64,000 nucleotides of DNA from a virus: positions 1 through 64,000 of IMG/VR virus record IMGVR_UViG_3300035661_000009. One strand, written 5' to 3'. The notes beneath the pieces are model-generated. The model saw nothing but the letters and a program-made list of their open reading frames with translations. It did not search any database and was not told the origin of the DNA. Positions 3,345-9,637 of the stretch are shown here, piece by piece. Positions within the stretch are counted from its first letter, which is position 1; each line of letters opens with the position of its first letter. A program made the translations under genes and the position numbers.

Positions 3345-3691
3345 TACGCAGTTGCTCCCTTTTGCGTGGCCATTATATCATAAGGAACGTGGCCTGCATA
3401 GGAGACGAGTTCGAACCAAGTGTTCATTTTAATAAAAAATTCGTTGTCGGACATTAAATCTTCATGAAGTTTATCTTGAATATAATTTTTACTTATAGTT
3501 AAATAAAGATTAATTGATTCATCTATAAAACCACTTATAGAATATTCGTAAACTAATGAACAAAGACCTTTTGAATGAGCCATTTTAGAGATCTTATTTT
3601 TATTTAGATCGGAGTCTAATGTAATTTTAGCGGTCTCTAGTTCTTTTTTGTCCTTATTATACATGGTTAATAGATTGGTATCGATTGCCAT
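3344..3691 (-). CDS. Hypothetical protein
   Basis: 115 aa; GGAGG RBS; overlaps end of dNMP kinase gene. Confidence 0.6.
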   Translation of the reverse strand: MAIDTNLLTMYNKDKKELETAKITLDSDLNKNKISKMAHSKGLCSLVYEYSISGFIDESINLYLTISKNYIQDKLHEDLMSDNEFFIKMNTWFELVSYAGHVPYDIMATQKGATA

Positions 3692-4464
3692 TTTGGGAAT
3701 ACCTCCGCAAAGGCTTTGACGACCTGAACCTCTAGATAGGAGAGACTATCTTTCCTGTTAAGGATGATTAAATCAAATAAGTTTTTATTGATTAAATCTA
3801 CGTTTTCAGATACATGAGTATTGGCTTCTGGCGAAACCGGATTTTCTACCTTAATTATAGCTGATCCAATGGAGGCCAACGCTATTACTTCGTTTGGAAA
3901 CCGAGCGTCTGTGATTATAACAAACGGACAGCAATATTTAGCATCAGTTGGTATAAGGCCAATATTCTGATTGTATTTCCAACCACCAGATAGTAACTTA
4001 ATTGCCGTATCTTTAGTAAAATCGACCCATACATTGGAAGAAATTGATCTACCCCACTCCGTACCTAAATATTGAAGTACAACTCTTGGGGAGATTGTTG
4101 CTTCGAACTTTTTCATCAATTGCGGAAGTACATTCTTGCGTAATATATCAAGAGCTTTCATGTAATCGGGACCAAACACCTTCTTAATCTCTTCGTTTAA
4201 GAGATGGTGAGCTACGATTTCATAGTTTACCTCTTTCCAGACCTTGGCCCTAGTATCTGGGTTTAAAAATCTAGGATCTATTTGATCTCTGTTTTGTGAT
4301 GGGCCCCATAATTGATCATCGGAAAAAGAAAAAAGAATTTTAACTATACGTTTAAGCGGGTCGGCAAAAGCTATTGTAGTGCCACTAGTCATTAAAGATA
4401 ATATTGCTCCAACTGAGTCTTTTCCGGCACCAGCTCTTCCAACTATTGTGATTATTGGTATCAT
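3667..4464 (-). CDS. Deoxynucleoside monophosphate kinase (T4 gp1-like)
   Basis: GRAGAGKD P-loop, FADPLK, PRVVLQYLGTEWGR, ITDARFPNE, HVSE motifs; start probably at 4464 (ATGA overlap with thyX). Confidence 0.88.
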   Translation of the reverse strand: MIPIITIVGRAGAGKDSVGAILSLMTSGTTIAFADPLKRIVKILFSFSDDQLWGPSQNRDQIDPRFLNPDTRAKVWKEVNYEIVAHHLLNEEIKKVFGPDYMKALDILRKNVLPQLMKKFEATISPRVVLQYLGTEWGRSISSNVWVDFTKDTAIKLLSGGWKYNQNIGLIPTDAKYCCPFVIITDARFPNEVIALASIGSAIIKVENPVSPEANTHVSENVDLINKNLFDLIILNRKDSLSYLEVQVVKAFAEVFPKWQSIPIY

Positions 4465-5126
4465 TCTGACCATCCTATGGCTTTACAGACATTAGGGAAG
4501 GTTGGGATCATCACATCTCTAATGATAGCATGAGCTATATCTGCGTGTTCTTTTTGAGTTCCATTCCCAGAACGAAGTTGAAGATAATGAACCCAGCTCC
4601 TGAGACTGCCGTTCATGAACATGGTTGTTTTAGTATTTAATGGAAGCAAAAACCTTGCTTGTTCTTTGGCAATCCCTTTTTCTAAAGACTTATTATAAAG
4701 ATCGATCGAATTATTCCATACTTGCATTTGAGCTTCAGCAAACCATTCTTGGTCTTCTTTAGGCATGTCGTCTATACTATTTTGACGATTTTTAATATCT
4801 TGACGACGAGCAGGATATGTTTCATAGTCGCTAACTACTGAATATCGTTGACTAAATTCTTGAAAAACAAATGAGCGGTGGCGTAGGACCTGAGCGGCTA
4901 TAGCCCGGCTAGTTTGGATTTCTACACAAAAATTGACCATTTCTAGTGGTGACCAATGCTTATTTTCAATTAAATATTTTAAAAGTTTTGGGGCGGTATC
5001 TAATTTGTCTTGGTTTTGTGGTGCCGAGACTCTTGCTGTATAACAAACCAGATCTTCAGCGGTCATTGATTGCCCATTTGGAGTGGTAATTGTCGGCTGT
5101 TGTAGTGAAATTAACTTAACTTTCAT
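4461..5126 (-). CDS. thyX: FAD-dependent thymidylate synthase
   Basis: HWSPLE, QVLRHRSFVFQEFSQRY signature, EQARFLLP, TQKEH. Confidence 0.95.
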   Translation of the reverse strand: MKVKLISLQQPTITTPNGQSMTAEDLVCYTARVSAPQNQDKLDTAPKLLKYLIENKHWSPLEMVNFCVEIQTSRAIAAQVLRHRSFVFQEFSQRYSVVSDYETYPARRQDIKNRQNSIDDMPKEDQEWFAEAQMQVWNNSIDLYNKSLEKGIAKEQARFLLPLNTKTTMFMNGSLRSWVHYLQLRSGNGTQKEHADIAHAIIRDVMIPTFPNVCKAIGWSE

Positions 5127-6208
5127 TTAGTGCTCATTCCATGTGGAGTGCCTTCTATGTGGCTAGCTCCGGTTATCAACATAAATCTCACTTTTTGGCG
5201 AAATTCGGTTAAGTTGTTGCTTCCGCTATAGCTAAGGGCCGACTTTAATCCGCCATTTAAGTTATTTACTACTAATGAAACGGGTCCTGTCATCGGTTTC
5301 ATTATCGCAACGCCTTCTGGGGTATAGTCAGTAGGTAACTCTGGGTCAAAATCTGACCTGGCTTCTCTGCTTGCCATACCTCTATAAATTTTTTGGCCTT
5401 GCATTATAGTTCCGGGAGCCTCGGTTGTAGTGGCGAACAGACTACCTATCATAACAGTGTCGGCGCCGAAAGCAAGGGCCTTAGCTATGTCGCCTGAATC
5501 ACGAATACCGCCATCAGCTATAAGATCGAATTTAAAATCTTTCTTTAATTCTGCTACTTCTGCTATAGCTGTGATTTGTGGCACTCCGTGGCCTGTAACG
5601 CGACGGGTGGTGCAAACGGCACCGGGACCTATACCTACCTTCAAAGCATCTGCACCGGCCTCTAACAGCCTTTTACCGCCTTCATAGGTGGCTACATTAC
5701 CTGCAATGATTTTGGCTGTTGGAAAATCTTTTTTAATAGCTGTTATAGTTTCTATCATTAACTTGCTATCGCCGTGGGCTATGTCAATACACAAGCCATC
5801 TGCCGTTTTATTTGCAATTAACCATGATCCTAAATTAACAGCTTCGGATCCGACGCCAATGCTTGCAATAACTATACCGCCATTTTGTTTAATTAGTTTT
5901 GCTTGATCTACAATAGCTTGAATATCTTGGTATCTATGTAAAATCCCTATACCACCAAGGTTATTCATAGCTATAGCCATGTTAGCCTCGGTTACGGTAT
6001 CCATATTAGCTGAGATAAGTGGATTTAACAGCTTAAATCCTAGCAAAGAAGTCGATATGTCTACGTTTTTGCGGGTCTCTACCTCAGAGTATTGAGGTTC
6101 GAGAAGCACGTCGTCGAATGTAATTGCTTGATTTAACTGGTTAATTTTTGATACTGGCTTAGCCGCATATTTGGGCTTGCGTTTAAAAAGATTGAAGGGC
6201 AGTTTCAT
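5123..6208 (-). CDS. IMP dehydrogenase / GMP reductase family protein (no CBS domains)
   Basis: [38 protein letters not shown] (catalytic Cys), ADGGIR, YRGMAS, PEGV. Confidence 0.93.
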
Positions 6209-6231: not shown

Positions 6232-6254
6232 CAGGTTAAGATGACAACAACAAA

Positions 6255-6287
6255 TAAGAAAGCCCAGCATGGGGCTGGGCTTTCTTA
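6255..6287 (-). terminator. Intrinsic terminator ending the capsid operon
   Basis: Perfect 14-bp inverted repeat TAAGAAAGCCCAGC / GCTGGGCTTTCTTA with 5-nt loop; U-rich run on the minus strand. Confidence 0.85.
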
Positions 6288-6306
6288 CTACAGACTGTTT
6301 ATTTTA

Positions 6307-6655
6307 TTACCAGAGCGCTGAATCAGTTGCTGAGGTTAGAACGAGTGCTCTCATTACTAAGTAGACGTTGCCAACGACGCCAGCTACTGGTAGAGTGCCC
6401 GCAGTAGCTACTAGATATCCCAATACTGCACCGCCCGCTGAAGGAATCATTAATACTGAGTCACCTACAGCTAATGCACCGAAGTCGGTAGTTGTTGAAG
6501 TGCTGGTTCCCGTGATCTTAGCGACACAGGTTTGAGCAGATAGAGCAGCTACTAATGCACCTTGGTTTACGTTTGTAATTACTTCTGTGGCAGTAGCGGG
6601 GTCTATTGAGATAGCAGTAAGTACCCCTTTTTGCCTTTTGTGATAAATTAGCCAT
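6307..6655 (-). CDS. Putative capsid decoration protein (115 aa), split by a +1 frameshift at 6624-6632; absent from ORF track
   Basis: AAGGAG RBS + ATG 6655. Frame 0 stops at 6518. The +1 frame reads GVLTAISIDPATATEV...LTSATDSALW* with structural-protein composition. Span is 349 nt (3n+1). Confidence 0.7.
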
Positions 6656-6679
6656 TTTGTAGCTCCTTATCCTTAGTTA

Positions 6680-8092
6680 TTAAAACGCACCGATTAGTGA
6701 GTCAATTAGAACGTTCTTGCGTGGCTCCAGAACCGCTAAGCAGAGGAAACGGAAATGCGCTTCAGGCTGTGAAAGGTCAACTACCGCTAGTTTTAGACGG
6801 CTGTATGAAGCTAGTTCCTTTAATACCATTGTATCCTTTTCTACTAGGAATCCAGTGATACCACCGGGTAGACGGTTATTTAGGTCAAGGAATTGTACTG
6901 AAGCTCCCTTGTACGCTACACGACCTACTAACTTCGCAGTTGACGCCGCACCACCTGAGGCTGAGCGGAATACGTTGAAGAAACGTACAGTACCTGAACC
7001 AACGGCACAGGTTACTTGGATTTGCTGACCGGCAGTTAATGAAGCTGAGGTTACAGCCGCTGAAGGTGCTGATTCACCAATTTCATTTTCCGCAGTAATG
7101 TAATAAGTATAAGTCGCGCCAGCTAGGAATGAAGTTGACCCAGCTTGAGGAGTGACTGAAGAAATTGAGGGCGTACCGGGAGCGCCGTTACGAGTTCTCT
7201 TTTGCTTAGTTTGCGCTGATAGGAAGCGTGAAGCTTCTAGGGTGACAACGCCACCTGAAACTGCTTGCTTACCGATATCCGCACCAGTGGTAGGCTCAGA
7301 AGCTGAGTTACCAAGAACAATGCGTTCCTTACCGGCATAGCTGTTCTTTGAGTAAGCTGATAGAACTAGAGGATCTATATAAAGCTTATCTGCCGATCCC
7401 ATGTTCATTAGACCACGAACCCAAGCATCTTCAATCATTGACTGGGTTAGAACACCACCACCAGCTATAATAACTGAAAGGTTTGAACCAAACGCGTCAA
7501 ACATTAGGTCTTGAGTGTTGGTTTGTGAGTCTGAAATACGAACTTGCGCATCTAGACCAACCATGTTAGGCATACGGTCTGGGAACGCTAGCGGGTTACC
7601 ATCGAAAACACCCGCGTTTGAGAAGTCGCCCTTACCACGGAAAATATCAAATTCGACATCGCCAGCGATTTTCTTCGCGCCTGATTGCGCTTCACGATCT
7701 TCCGCCTTAACGCCATCTTGAGTCTCTGCCATATTAGCAGCTAGAGTTACTCGACGAATGTGGCTGTAATAAGCCATCGGAACAACCGCGCGCACGAAGT
7801 CTGAGGTCTCTTCTGACCCTACTTGACCTTCGTGTTGCGCTGAACCGCCAAAGATACCATATGATAGCTGGCGATTGAATTGTACCAATTGACCCTTAGA
7901 CTTTTCCACCTTAACTTCTTTTTGAAGTTTGATGTGCTTGTCTTGGAAGGTGACGTTGTGCATTACAGGTGAAACATCTTCTACCTGTAGGGCGCTGCCT
8001 TGCACGAGTGAACCGGGAGAACCTGCATATGAGCCCAATTCTAGTGCCTTAACTAGATCTTCAATTTTGTTTAAAAGGTTTGTACCTGACAT
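6680..8092 (-). CDS. Major capsid protein (Herelleviridae-like, with FN3-like insertion)
   Basis: N-terminal KAL..G....PGSL..GSALQVEDV, then EFDIFRG and GLDAQV; insertion PGTP...YTYYITAENEIGESAPS; lies after scaffold; strong RBS. Confidence 0.9.
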   Translation of the reverse strand: MSGTNLLNKIEDLVKALELGSYAGSPGSLVQGSALQVEDVSPVMHNVTFQDKHIKLQKEVKVEKSKGQLVQFNRQLSYGIFGGSAQHEGQVGSEETSDFVRAVVPMAYYSHIRRVTLAANMAETQDGVKAEDREAQSGAKKIAGDVEFDIFRGKGDFSNAGVFDGNPLAFPDRMPNMVGLDAQVRISDSQTNTQDLMFDAFGSNLSVIIAGGGVLTQSMIEDAWVRGLMNMGSADKLYIDPLVLSAYSKNSYAGKERIVLGNSASEPTTGADIGKQAVSGGVVTLEASRFLSAQTKQKRTRNGAPGTPSISSVTPQAGSTSFLAGATYTYYITAENEIGESAPSAAVTSASLTAGQQIQVTCAVGSGTVRFFNVFRSASGGAASTAKLVGRVAYKGASVQFLDLNNRLPGGITGFLVEKDTMVLKELASYSRLKLAVVDLSQPEAHFRFLCLAVLEPRKNVLIDSLIGAF

Positions 8093-8107
8093 ACTTTATT
8101 CTCCTGG

Positions 8108-9145
8108 TTACTTCAGTAAGTGTGAAATTTCATTTACATCTACATCGCCTGCAAGAACGTATCGATTAATTAAATCTCGGTCCGATTTCTTCAAATCATT
8201 GCTTTGGGCTACTTGATTTAACTTCTTTAATACATCTTTGCGATTCATTGATACTGGCTTAGGCTTCTCTAATTCCGACTTGGCTACGAATTGAGCCATT
8301 GAAGTAAACGCCTTTTGTTGCGGGCGAGTAATCATCGTTTCTAGTAAACCCGTTAATCCAGCTAATTGTCTTTCTAATGAAGCAACCTTTTCATCGGTTG
8401 CTTTCTTTAGCTCATCAGCCCATACTGGAGCTTCTGAAGCTTGTAATTGTTCTGGCGGACCACCGGCACCCATTTCTGGAGGCATTCCGCCTGCACCCGG
8501 AGGGCCACCGGCTGGTGAGCCTGAGGCTTCTGGAGGCATTCCGCCTGCACCCGGAGGGCCACCTGCACCTTGATCTGGTGAAGGAGCACCCGGAGCCGCT
8601 GGAGCGCCTGCTCCACCGCTCATACGTTGCATAACTACCGCTCGGAGAGCTTCATAGTGCATTTGTAATTGATCATCAGGAAGCGCAGCATAAGCTTGTT
8701 CTAGAGTTTGTTCATCCCCTTGTTGCTGTTCTGGGGATTCTTGTCCGGGAGGAGCTTCTGCACCTTCTTCGCCACCATCTGCTGGCGGGGTTTCTGATTC
8801 TCCACCACCTTCTGACGCGCCTTCTGATGCACTTTCGCCACCCATATCGGGAGAACCTTCTGGAGCCGAACCTTCTTTCTCTAATTCAAGTTGTTCTGCG
8901 TCTTTCTTAAGACCGCCCTTATTCTCATGAACAATTTGACCTTCTTTGCCCATTTTGGGAGCTTTGTCGTGTAAAATTTGTGCATGACCGGAACTAGCTT
9001 GGCCGACTTCATGGCCACTTGAGCGTTGTCCGCCTGATTCAGCTGATGGATATTGTTTTCCACCTTCTGACTTTAATAGTTCGGGAAGATCCGTTCGGAG
9101 TTCTTCAATAAGTGAGTTAATTTCGTCGTCGGTATATGATTTCAT
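8108..9145 (-). CDS. Head scaffolding protein
   Basis: Acidic, low-complexity G/P/A/E sequence with coiled coil; many L-x-K-[S/A/D] sites; directly upstream of major capsid gene. Confidence 0.7.
   Translation of the reverse strand: MKSYTDDEINSLIEELRTDLPELLKSEGGKQYPSAESGGQRSSGHEVGQASSGHAQILHDKAPKMGKEGQIVHENKGGLKKDAEQLELEKEGSAPEGSPDMGGESASEGASEGGGESETPPADGGEEGAEAPPGQESPEQQQGDEQTLEQAYAALPDDQLQMHYEALRAVVMQRMSGGAGAPAAPGAPSPDQGAGGPPGAGGMPPEASGSPAGGPPGAGGMPPEMGAGGPPEQLQASEAPVWADELKKATDEKVASLERQLAGLTGLLETMITRPQQKAFTSMAQFVAKSELEKPKPVSMNRKDVLKKLNQVAQSNDLKKSDRDLINRYVLAGDVDVNEISHLLK
8474..8563. repeat. 36-bp perfect direct repeat (GGPPGAGGMPPE x2) in scaffold gene
   Basis: Copies at 8474-8509 and 8528-8563. 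Confidence 0.9.
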
Positions 9146-9175
9146 ATAACCTCCTTTTTTTGAGAATCAACTCAA

Positions 9176-9637
9176 TTACATGTCGCCTAGGTCTTTCCAG
9201 TATAGGTCGCTTAGAACATAAGTAGGAGTACCGGTAATATCTGATACAGTAGGGATCGCACCGTTAGCGCGTATATAAACTTCAACGCGGACATGTTGTT
9301 GAGCTAGTTCTAGGAAAACGCGGTTCTTTACAACTTCAGCTACTAGCGAAACGCCAGTTAGACCAGCGGCTTGCTCTAGAACTACTTGAGCAATATGTGG
9401 ACCATACGAGTCTTGAGCAACGCCAACTGAGTTAAACCCAATTGAAGGCATTTCAATTATACGGATTACGACGTTATTTTCGCCAGTAGCGGGGGTGCCG
9501 TCGTTTACTGAAACTACAGGAAAACCTGAAGAATCTAGTGATTCAATTACTGATAAAATCGGGGTCTCTTGCATGCGTAGAGTTAGCTTTTGTGCAAGGG
9601 TACGTGATAAAACTAGTGCTTTCTTAAGTGTGGACAT
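9176..9637 (-). CDS. Putative head structural protein
   Basis: 153 aa; AGGAG RBS; N-terminal LKKA site; first gene ahead of scaffold and capsid genes. Confidence 0.55.
   Translation of the reverse strand: MSTLKKALVLSRTLAQKLTLRMQETPILSVIESLDSSGFPVVSVNDGTPATGENNVVIRIIEMPSIGFNSVGVAQDSYGPHIAQVVLEQAAGLTGVSLVAEVVKNRVFLELAQQHVRVEVYIRANGAIPTVSDITGTPTYVLSDLYWKDLGDM

Follow-up and report, generated by a model that had tools for sequence, protein, structure and literature searches.

Organization of the capsid and small-gene locus

The window, by which the whole stretch of 64,000 nucleotides analysed here is meant, comprises the first 64 kb of a 160,015-bp phage record in IMG/VR (CheckV completeness 99%, GC content 39.7%). 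Myxococcus phage Mx1 is a distant relative, with 66.8% nucleotide identity between the two capsid genes. On the minus strand, the gene for the major capsid protein lies directly upstream of a small gene with which it forms a common transcription unit, and the 24-nt spacer that separates it from the ATG of the small gene has AAGGAG inside (Table 1).

Table 1. Coordinates of the capsid and small-gene unit in the window
Feature	Position	Strand	Remarks
Major capsid protein gene, 470 aa	6680..8092	-	phrog_752 major head protein, E 1.2e-43
Shine-Dalgarno AAGGAG	6663..6668	-	7 nt before ATG; read directly from sequence
Frame-0 head, ATG + MANLSQKAK(R)	6626..6655	-	MANLS/MA-LS..A.K(R)L conserved in homologues
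Homopolymer tract AAAAAGGGG (A5G4), one surplus base (frame break)	6624..6632	-	
Frame-0 ORF, 45 aa	6518..6655	-	product without shift; Cys/Arg-rich beyond residue 10
+1-frame body, 106 codons + TAA	6307..6627	-	homologues, E 2.7e-20 and weaker
Intrinsic terminator	6253..6289	-	16-pair stem, T-rich tail; closes capsid/small-gene unit

From the ATG at 6655-6653, the small gene reads ATG GCT AAT TTA TCA CAA AAG GCA AAA AGG GGT, and the tract within it consists, on the minus strand, of A5 at 6632-6628 followed by G4 at 6627-6624. Frame 0 translates as MANLSQKAKRGTYCY... (MANLSQKAK RGTYCY...) up to the stop at 6518, and no gene with this exact 45-aa product was found on record. In the +1 frame, an open stretch extends from 6666 to the TAA at 6309-6307; it has 106 residues counted from the GGG at 6627 and contains no ATG, GTG or TTG upstream of 6450. 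Joining the two frames yields a product of 115 aa (P0040), and the phage genome holds no second intact copy or paralogue of the small gene. A strong RBS, the ATG, the head MANLSQKAK, the 45-aa frame-0 product, the 106-aa +1 body and the terminator had all been listed in the first-pass annotation of this DNA, and each was recovered at its place; the statement that the +1 body lacks an early start codon also held.

Regarding the neighbourhood of this unit, a nucleotide-metabolism block follows directly 3' of the terminator (3667-6208, minus strand), with genes for an IMPDH/GMP-reductase-like protein (361 aa), ThyX (221 aa) and a dNMP kinase (268 aa); the capsid gene of Mx1 is likewise followed by genes for thymidylate synthase and dNMP kinase. 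Between the capsid gene and the 9176 gene, a scaffold-like gene (8108-9145, minus strand) encodes a Gly/Pro/Ala-rich protein of 345 aa and carries an exact 36-bp direct repeat (8474-8509 and 8528-8563), which encodes a repeated GGPPGAGGMPPE segment.

A conserved protein encoded in two frames

The small gene is real, and its coding sequence changes from frame 0 to frame +1 within the A5G4 run. A search of a 5.8-billion-protein collection with the +1 body returned 37 homologues of 97-140 aa with E values down to 2.7e-20, and a profile search with the family returned 109 clusters at 50% identity. The joined product aligns end to end with this unnamed family of phage proteins, which are about 112-118 aa long, and the N-terminal motif of the family, M-A-(N)-L-S-x-x-A-x-K-R-L, is found in frame 0 in this phage. 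Judged from this alignment, the frame-0 head is the true N-terminus of the family.

Four candidate products were compared by scoring them against a family profile built without the row of the window protein. The +1 body alone obtained 102.3 bits, a product started at an ATT codon 106.0 bits, the join made by skipping an A (AKGVL) 109.0 bits, and the join made by skipping a G (AKRVL) 111.5 bits, so that the nine frame-0 codons add 6.7-9.2 bits. These scores and the N-terminal motif therefore identify the ATG at 6655 as the true start and indicate that A5G4 holds exactly one base too many.

The window protein has the family motifs ATSTSTTTDFGALAVGD, ATAGTLP and LYVVLR, and every family-invariant residue is intact in it. 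Its deviation at conserved columns falls in the upper fifth of the family, yet inside the family range, which makes this test of decay uninformative; decay is not apparent, and a recent mutation would look alike. Two short family members, P0131 and P0101, were checked as possible further broken copies, and gave no information on this point, one of them being a divergent half-domain on a 655-bp contig.

Presence of the surplus base in the DNA

An identical capsid protein is encoded in two further public assemblies, namely a JGI contig of 159,891 bp (sample 3300036715), which differs from the 160,015-bp record in length and offset, and a Logan contig of 17.8 kb (run SRR11723145). Both have the same A5G4, their identity to the window is 100% over 7.4 kb for the JGI contig and over 4.8 kb for the Logan contig, and both leave a 471-bp gap without a called gene at the small gene. 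Moreover, 722 homopolymer runs (A/T of at least 5, G/C of at least 4) lie inside the 91 intact ORFs of at least 150 aa of this genome, 89% of which is occupied by ORFs of at least 70 aa. Since the same A5G4 is present in two other assemblies and these 722 runs sit in intact ORFs, an assembler artefact is unlikely, and so is the one-base assembly error that had been offered as an alternative in the first-pass annotation. The extra base is very probably present in the DNA.

The three identical assemblies may come from one sample or from sibling samples, and their agreement is without evolutionary information. A5G4 is the sole allele in all available assemblies of this phage, which is abundant enough to assemble to 160 kb.

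Outside the window, at G000:C1 71452-71670 (plus strand), a 77-codon open frame without ATG, GTG or TTG for 73 codons sits in a gap that has no called ORF, and this frame may be non-coding.

Comparison with relatives

Relatives were searched for in viral and metagenome contigs with the family motifs located downstream of the break, and the search was therefore blind to the frame and free of gene-calling bias. The frame is shifted in none of the 47 relatives recovered (30 loci from viral contigs and 17 from metagenome contigs, with duplicates among them), and all but one of these loci have their own in-frame start, nearly always ATG, the exception being L058, which is cut by the contig end. The two-frame layout is likewise not conserved among homologues at the protein level, the 37 protein homologues being of full length. 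The programmed +1 shift proposed in the first-pass annotation had been made to depend on the frame of relatives, and this comparison goes against it, though the 47 relatives are distant, at most 57% identical over the best segment.

The closest phage, IMGVR 3300042988_000913 (L010), has a capsid protein 81% identical to that of the window and an intact 118-aa gene that starts with MANLTEKSVKHL. In L010, a 505-aa HNH/homing endonuclease (L010:881-2398; phrog_3339, E 3.5e-66) is encoded between the capsid and small-protein genes, whereas the two are adjacent in the window. A scan of viral contigs for the exact pattern of the site with variable tract length gave no match, nor did a scan of metagenome contigs with the joined protein for close relatives; a capsid-based scan of the collections returned the 81% relative and none closer, and no variant assembly with the same capsid protein was returned. 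At the level of the family, the shift is unique to this phage, the relatives compared being no closer than 81% capsid identity.

Position of the surplus base

At the place of the break, relatives have GCA AAA CGG CTT (A-K-R-L) in L012, AAA AGG CTG (K-R-L) in L042 and GCA AAA AGC TTA (A-K-S-L) in L011, and 15 of 19 homologues have K or R in the aligned column. Against the family profile, the skip-G join beats the skip-A join by 2.5 bits. From the A-K-R codons of the relatives and this gain, the surplus base probably lies in the G-run, beyond an ordinary in-frame AAA AGG, at modest odds of about 6 to 1. The simplest history, and the most probable one by this comparison, would be a change from GCA AAA AGG GTA to GCA AAA AGG GGTA by one extra G; AAA AGG would then be ordinary coding sequence, and the look of a slippery site followed by a rare codon would be a by-product.

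A shift after AGG would have a poor context, re-pairing from AGG to GGG requiring a first-position G-U pair, and the frame-0 A-site codon beyond AGG is GGT, the commonest Gly codon. The less likely alternative to the break in the G-run is a shift at AAA-A, with K-G-V as the result. The two are predicted to leave different junctions, AK-G-VLTAISIDPATATEVITNVNQGALVAALSAQTCVAK for the AAA-A shift and A-K-R followed by VLTAISIDPA... for the AGG-G shift.

Features bearing on +1 frameshifting

The downstream part of the gene lies in the +1 frame, has no start of its own and overlaps frame 0, and a P-site tRNA could re-pair there from AAA (6631-6629) to AAA (6630-6628). AGG accounts for 4.5 per 1000 codons and 11% of the Arg codons of the phage, and for none of the 36 Arg codons in the capsid, scaffold and 9176 genes (0 of 20 in the capsid gene). 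AGG is scarce, as may suit a slow A-site codon, but the phage encodes a normal tRNA-Arg(CCU) that reads it and has a 7-nt anticodon loop, and the in-frame AAA-AGG pairs of its ORFs occur at the expected frequency (7 seen against 7.8 expected) and are not depleted. What the first-pass annotation had described as a slippery AAA-A followed by a rare AGG thus stands as far as the possible re-pairing and the absence of AGG from three neighbouring late genes are concerned, whereas the tRNA-Arg(CCU), the frequency of AAA-AGG and the probable location of the break in the G-run weaken it as a frameshift context.

Codon usage in this region has further peculiarities. The late genes at 6680-9637 (minus strand) have no AGG and no CGG, and just 2 of their 36 Arg codons are AGA, the codon that leads all others for Arg in the genome as a whole (39%). 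The late structural genes appear to be a distinct codon-usage class. In the capsid gene, Lys is encoded by AAG more often than by AAA (19 against 5), in agreement with the phage tRNA-Lys(CUU). The latter is one of 12 phage tRNAs encoded outside the window, at G000:C1 84728-111314, the set being Arg-CCU, Thr-UGU, Leu-CAA, Leu-UAA, Lys-CUU, Ile-UAU, Tyr, Trp, Asn, Pro-UGG, Ala-UGC and Gln-UUG. The gene for tRNA-Arg(CCU) occupies 84728-84802 on the minus strand of the genome.

Regarding the remaining elements of the site, the +1-frame codon GGG is the rarest Gly codon, and the RNA 3' of the shift site folds no better than shuffled sequence (z -1.09). On the 5' side of AAA, at a distance of 2 nt, there is a 4-nt Shine-Dalgarno-like AAGG; the corresponding spacing in prfB is 3 nt. 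In the FSscan study, four pairs count as enough for such an element, and an AAA AGG T cassette (pspD) that was tested in E. coli is not among the four significantly above the random control (PMC2790909). A slippery P-site codon followed by a hungry AGG is an established principle, with Ty1 CUU AGG C as an example (PMC5009743).

A frameshift-suppressor tRNA with an 8-nt anticodon loop reading AGGG was also considered and is ruled out by the 7-nt loop of tRNA-Arg(CCU), and for transcriptional slippage both A5 and G4 are too short by established rules.

Comparison with known systems

The locus resembles prfB in that the +1 shift would be early and obligatory, the short frame-0 product is useless, a putatively slow A-site codon follows a re-pairable P-site codon, and an SD-like element lies just upstream. 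The prfB site is CUU UGA C, in which a stop codon serves as sensor, its SD-like element is a strong AGGGGG, and it is conserved across most bacteria, whereas the present site is found in one phage, has only AAGG and would rely on a slow sense codon for which the phage has its own tRNA. The yeast site CUU AGG C of Ty1 and ABP140 is similar in that a P-site tRNA slips by one base in front of a rare AGG, but that site is conserved and requires both a tRNA-Arg(CCU) of very low abundance and a special tRNA-Leu, whereas this phage supplies tRNA-Arg(CCU) itself (PMC5009743). On the relevance of virus-encoded tRNA to frameshifting, the 2016 review of Atkins et al. states that it is not known (PMC5009743).

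Among phages, the cps and tsh genes of Listeria phage PSA are structural genes with a +1 frameshift; as far as the account of this work in a later review goes (Zimmer 2003 via PMC5009743), ribosomes in PSA shift at a Pro codon close to the 3' end with the help of a pseudoknot or a stop codon, and a frame-0 protein that is already functional is thereby lengthened at its C-terminus. In the window, the shift would fall at codon 9-10 and the frame-0 product is junk. In phages such as PSA, T7 and T3, shifting extends functional proteins at the C-terminus, early shifts of the obligatory kind, like that of prfB, are regulatory and conserved, and a third class consists of low-level compensatory frameshifting on indels in homopolymer runs (PMC5009743). 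The thymidine kinase G-run of herpesviruses is of the compensatory kind and is similar to the present locus in its one-base indel in a homopolymer run, its useless non-shifted product and the production of full-length protein only by rare slippage, although the run there is longer (G7-G8) and the selective benefit demonstrated (PMC5009743), whereas here both slippage and benefit are putative. By analogy, the compensatory class appears to be the best fit for the window locus. With its own family (P0003-P0146, and WNM70236.1 of Mx1), the small protein shares end-to-end homology, equal length and the same motifs, and the gene often lies right after the capsid gene; the difference is that the window gene is the only member found with a broken frame.

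Origin and expression of the split gene

We favour, with a probability of roughly 0.6, a lineage-specific one-base insertion in a homopolymer tract, by which the gene is either broken or expressed only by rare, unselected slippage, because the base is in the DNA, no known relative has it and the rest of the gene is undecayed. Guided by the strong RBS and the ATG, ribosomes would read 9-10 correct codons and then 35 out-of-frame codons before stopping at 6518, and the full-length protein would arise only via a +1 slip on A-AAA-AGG-GG. Such slippage would be of the unselected, low-level 'compensatory' kind and not an evolved recoding signal, and the phage would either tolerate the loss of the protein or live on the small amount derived from slippage. 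Indels favour homopolymer runs, and a slippery-looking context is therefore expected under plain mutation. Several observations fit the insertion less easily: the family is widely conserved and has no paralogue in this genome, so that complete loss might be costly; A5G4 is the only allele in the available assemblies of an abundant phage; the RBS, the ATG, the terminator and the invariant residues are all intact; and a perfect AAA-to-AAA re-pairing stands before AGG, a codon that the late genes avoid.

Some of these observations also speak for a programmed, that is, selected and efficient, +1 frameshift, in which tRNA-Lys would slip from AAA to AAA while AGG is slowly decoded and decoding would resume at GGG; the layout would be prfB-like, with an obligatory early shift that the supply of tRNA-Arg(CCU) could tune. 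Re-pairing is perfect, AGG is rare and missing from the 36 Arg codons of the late genes, AAGG stands 2 nt upstream of AAA, neither the signals for initiation nor the frame beyond the break are damaged, three assemblies share the allele, and the hungry-codon principle is established (PMC5009743). We nevertheless regard this reading as unlikely: none of the 47 homologous loci is shifted, conservation in the family favours a break beyond AGG, where the A-site codon is the commonest Gly codon, GGT, the tRNA-Arg(CCU) that the phage supplies should shorten any pause at AGG, the other ORFs show no depletion of AAA-AGG, the +1 A-site codon GGG is rare, 3' structure is missing, and the AAA AGG T cassette did not reach significance in E. 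coli (PMC2790909). Its most specific form, a prfB-like obligatory shift at codon 9-10 that has newly evolved in this single lineage and whose efficiency is set by the supply of AGG-decoding tRNA, including the phage tRNA-Arg(CCU), is more doubtful still.

Another improbable reading is that the consensus hides heterogeneity, either as a coexisting intact allele (A4G4 or A5G3) arising by slipped-strand mutation or phase variation, or as a systematic sequencing error shared by assemblies of the same reads. Contigs drop minority variants, and the three assemblies, 100% identical over 4.8-7.4 kb, are maybe those of one sample or of siblings; however, two different assemblers agree, the 722 comparable runs are unbroken in large ORFs, and no variant assembly with the same capsid protein was returned. 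Useful rates of phase variation need tracts of about 7 or more bases, and A5 and G4 are far below this length; with tracts this short and three identical assemblies, the locus does not look like a contingency locus, and the phase variation of A5G4 suggested in the first-pass annotation finds no backing. It is very improbable that the +1 frame starts alone at a non-canonical ATT (6648-6646), the frame-0 ATG being a decoy and no frameshift being needed. The +1 frame, open from 6666, does contain this ATT, and the product reaches 106.0 bits, but the skip-G and skip-A products score 3-5.5 bits higher, the Shine-Dalgarno sequence is 14 nt from the ATT as against 7 nt from the ATG, and the frame-0 MANLS..A.K matches the family, of which L032 and L010 also begin with MANL. 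ATT, moreover, initiates poorly.

If the lineage-specific indel is all there is, the locus is a point of annotation, in that gene callers miss a conserved small virion-module gene, and it is a hint that the phage can perhaps do without the protein. If the shift is efficient, the locus would be an unusual case of obligatory +1 recoding within a phage structural operon and a natural system in which to follow the modulation of frameshifting by phage tRNAs; were the tRNA-tuned, prfB-like reading true, it would be the first case to tie a virus-encoded tRNA to the control of recoding.

The protein family and its possible function

The family is one of conserved, unnamed phage virion-module proteins of about 115 aa. 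It is widespread, with its 109 clusters at 50% identity; neither Pfam nor PHROG has an entry for it, searches of both having given no match, and no relative of it is known among solved structures. Virion proteomics and cryo-EM could reasonably be directed at this family. The +1-frame body (P0001) was modelled with AlphaFold from family alignments, a first model having a pLDDT of 64.6 and a second, confident one, made with a 96-sequence alignment, a pLDDT of 88 and a pTM of 0.71. The improved model (AF2) predicts a helix on the N-terminal side, at residues 10-29 of the +1 body, and a small beta domain after it. Comparison of the first model with viral structures gave no usable matches, and for the better model the search of the PDB with Foldseek gave no hit at E of 0.001 or below (best E 0.11), with VIA Z scores of at most 4.7 and Atlas TM scores of at most 0.56. 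No known fold is assigned to the small protein from this model, which does not show that the predicted fold is new. A fold shared with the solved decoration proteins (lambda gpD, T4 Soc/Hoc and phage L Dec types) was not detected either, the best VIA Z being 4.7 with no Foldseek E of 0.001 or below.

The gene is found 3' of the capsid gene here and in L010 (with the HNH endonuclease inserted), L011, L012 and L019; in L018 and L023 it lies 3' of a tail sheath gene and a 155-aa gene (tail sheath and tube-like genes), and in Mx1 it lies elsewhere. The first-pass annotation had called the protein decoration-like, with the shift setting its stoichiometry to the capsid protein; what bears on this proposal is the position of the gene, and from that position a decoration protein would be a guess.

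In some members of the family, the domain is part of a larger protein. P0041 (1029 aa) begins with a ConA-like lectin, a GDSL esterase and repeats and carries the small-protein domain C-terminally, in P0099 the fusion partner is an ice-binding-like domain, and P0080 is also among the fused forms. These fusions suggest that the domain may be a module for anchoring to the virion surface. In P0065, an insertion of about 100 aa lies within a loop of the small-protein domain.
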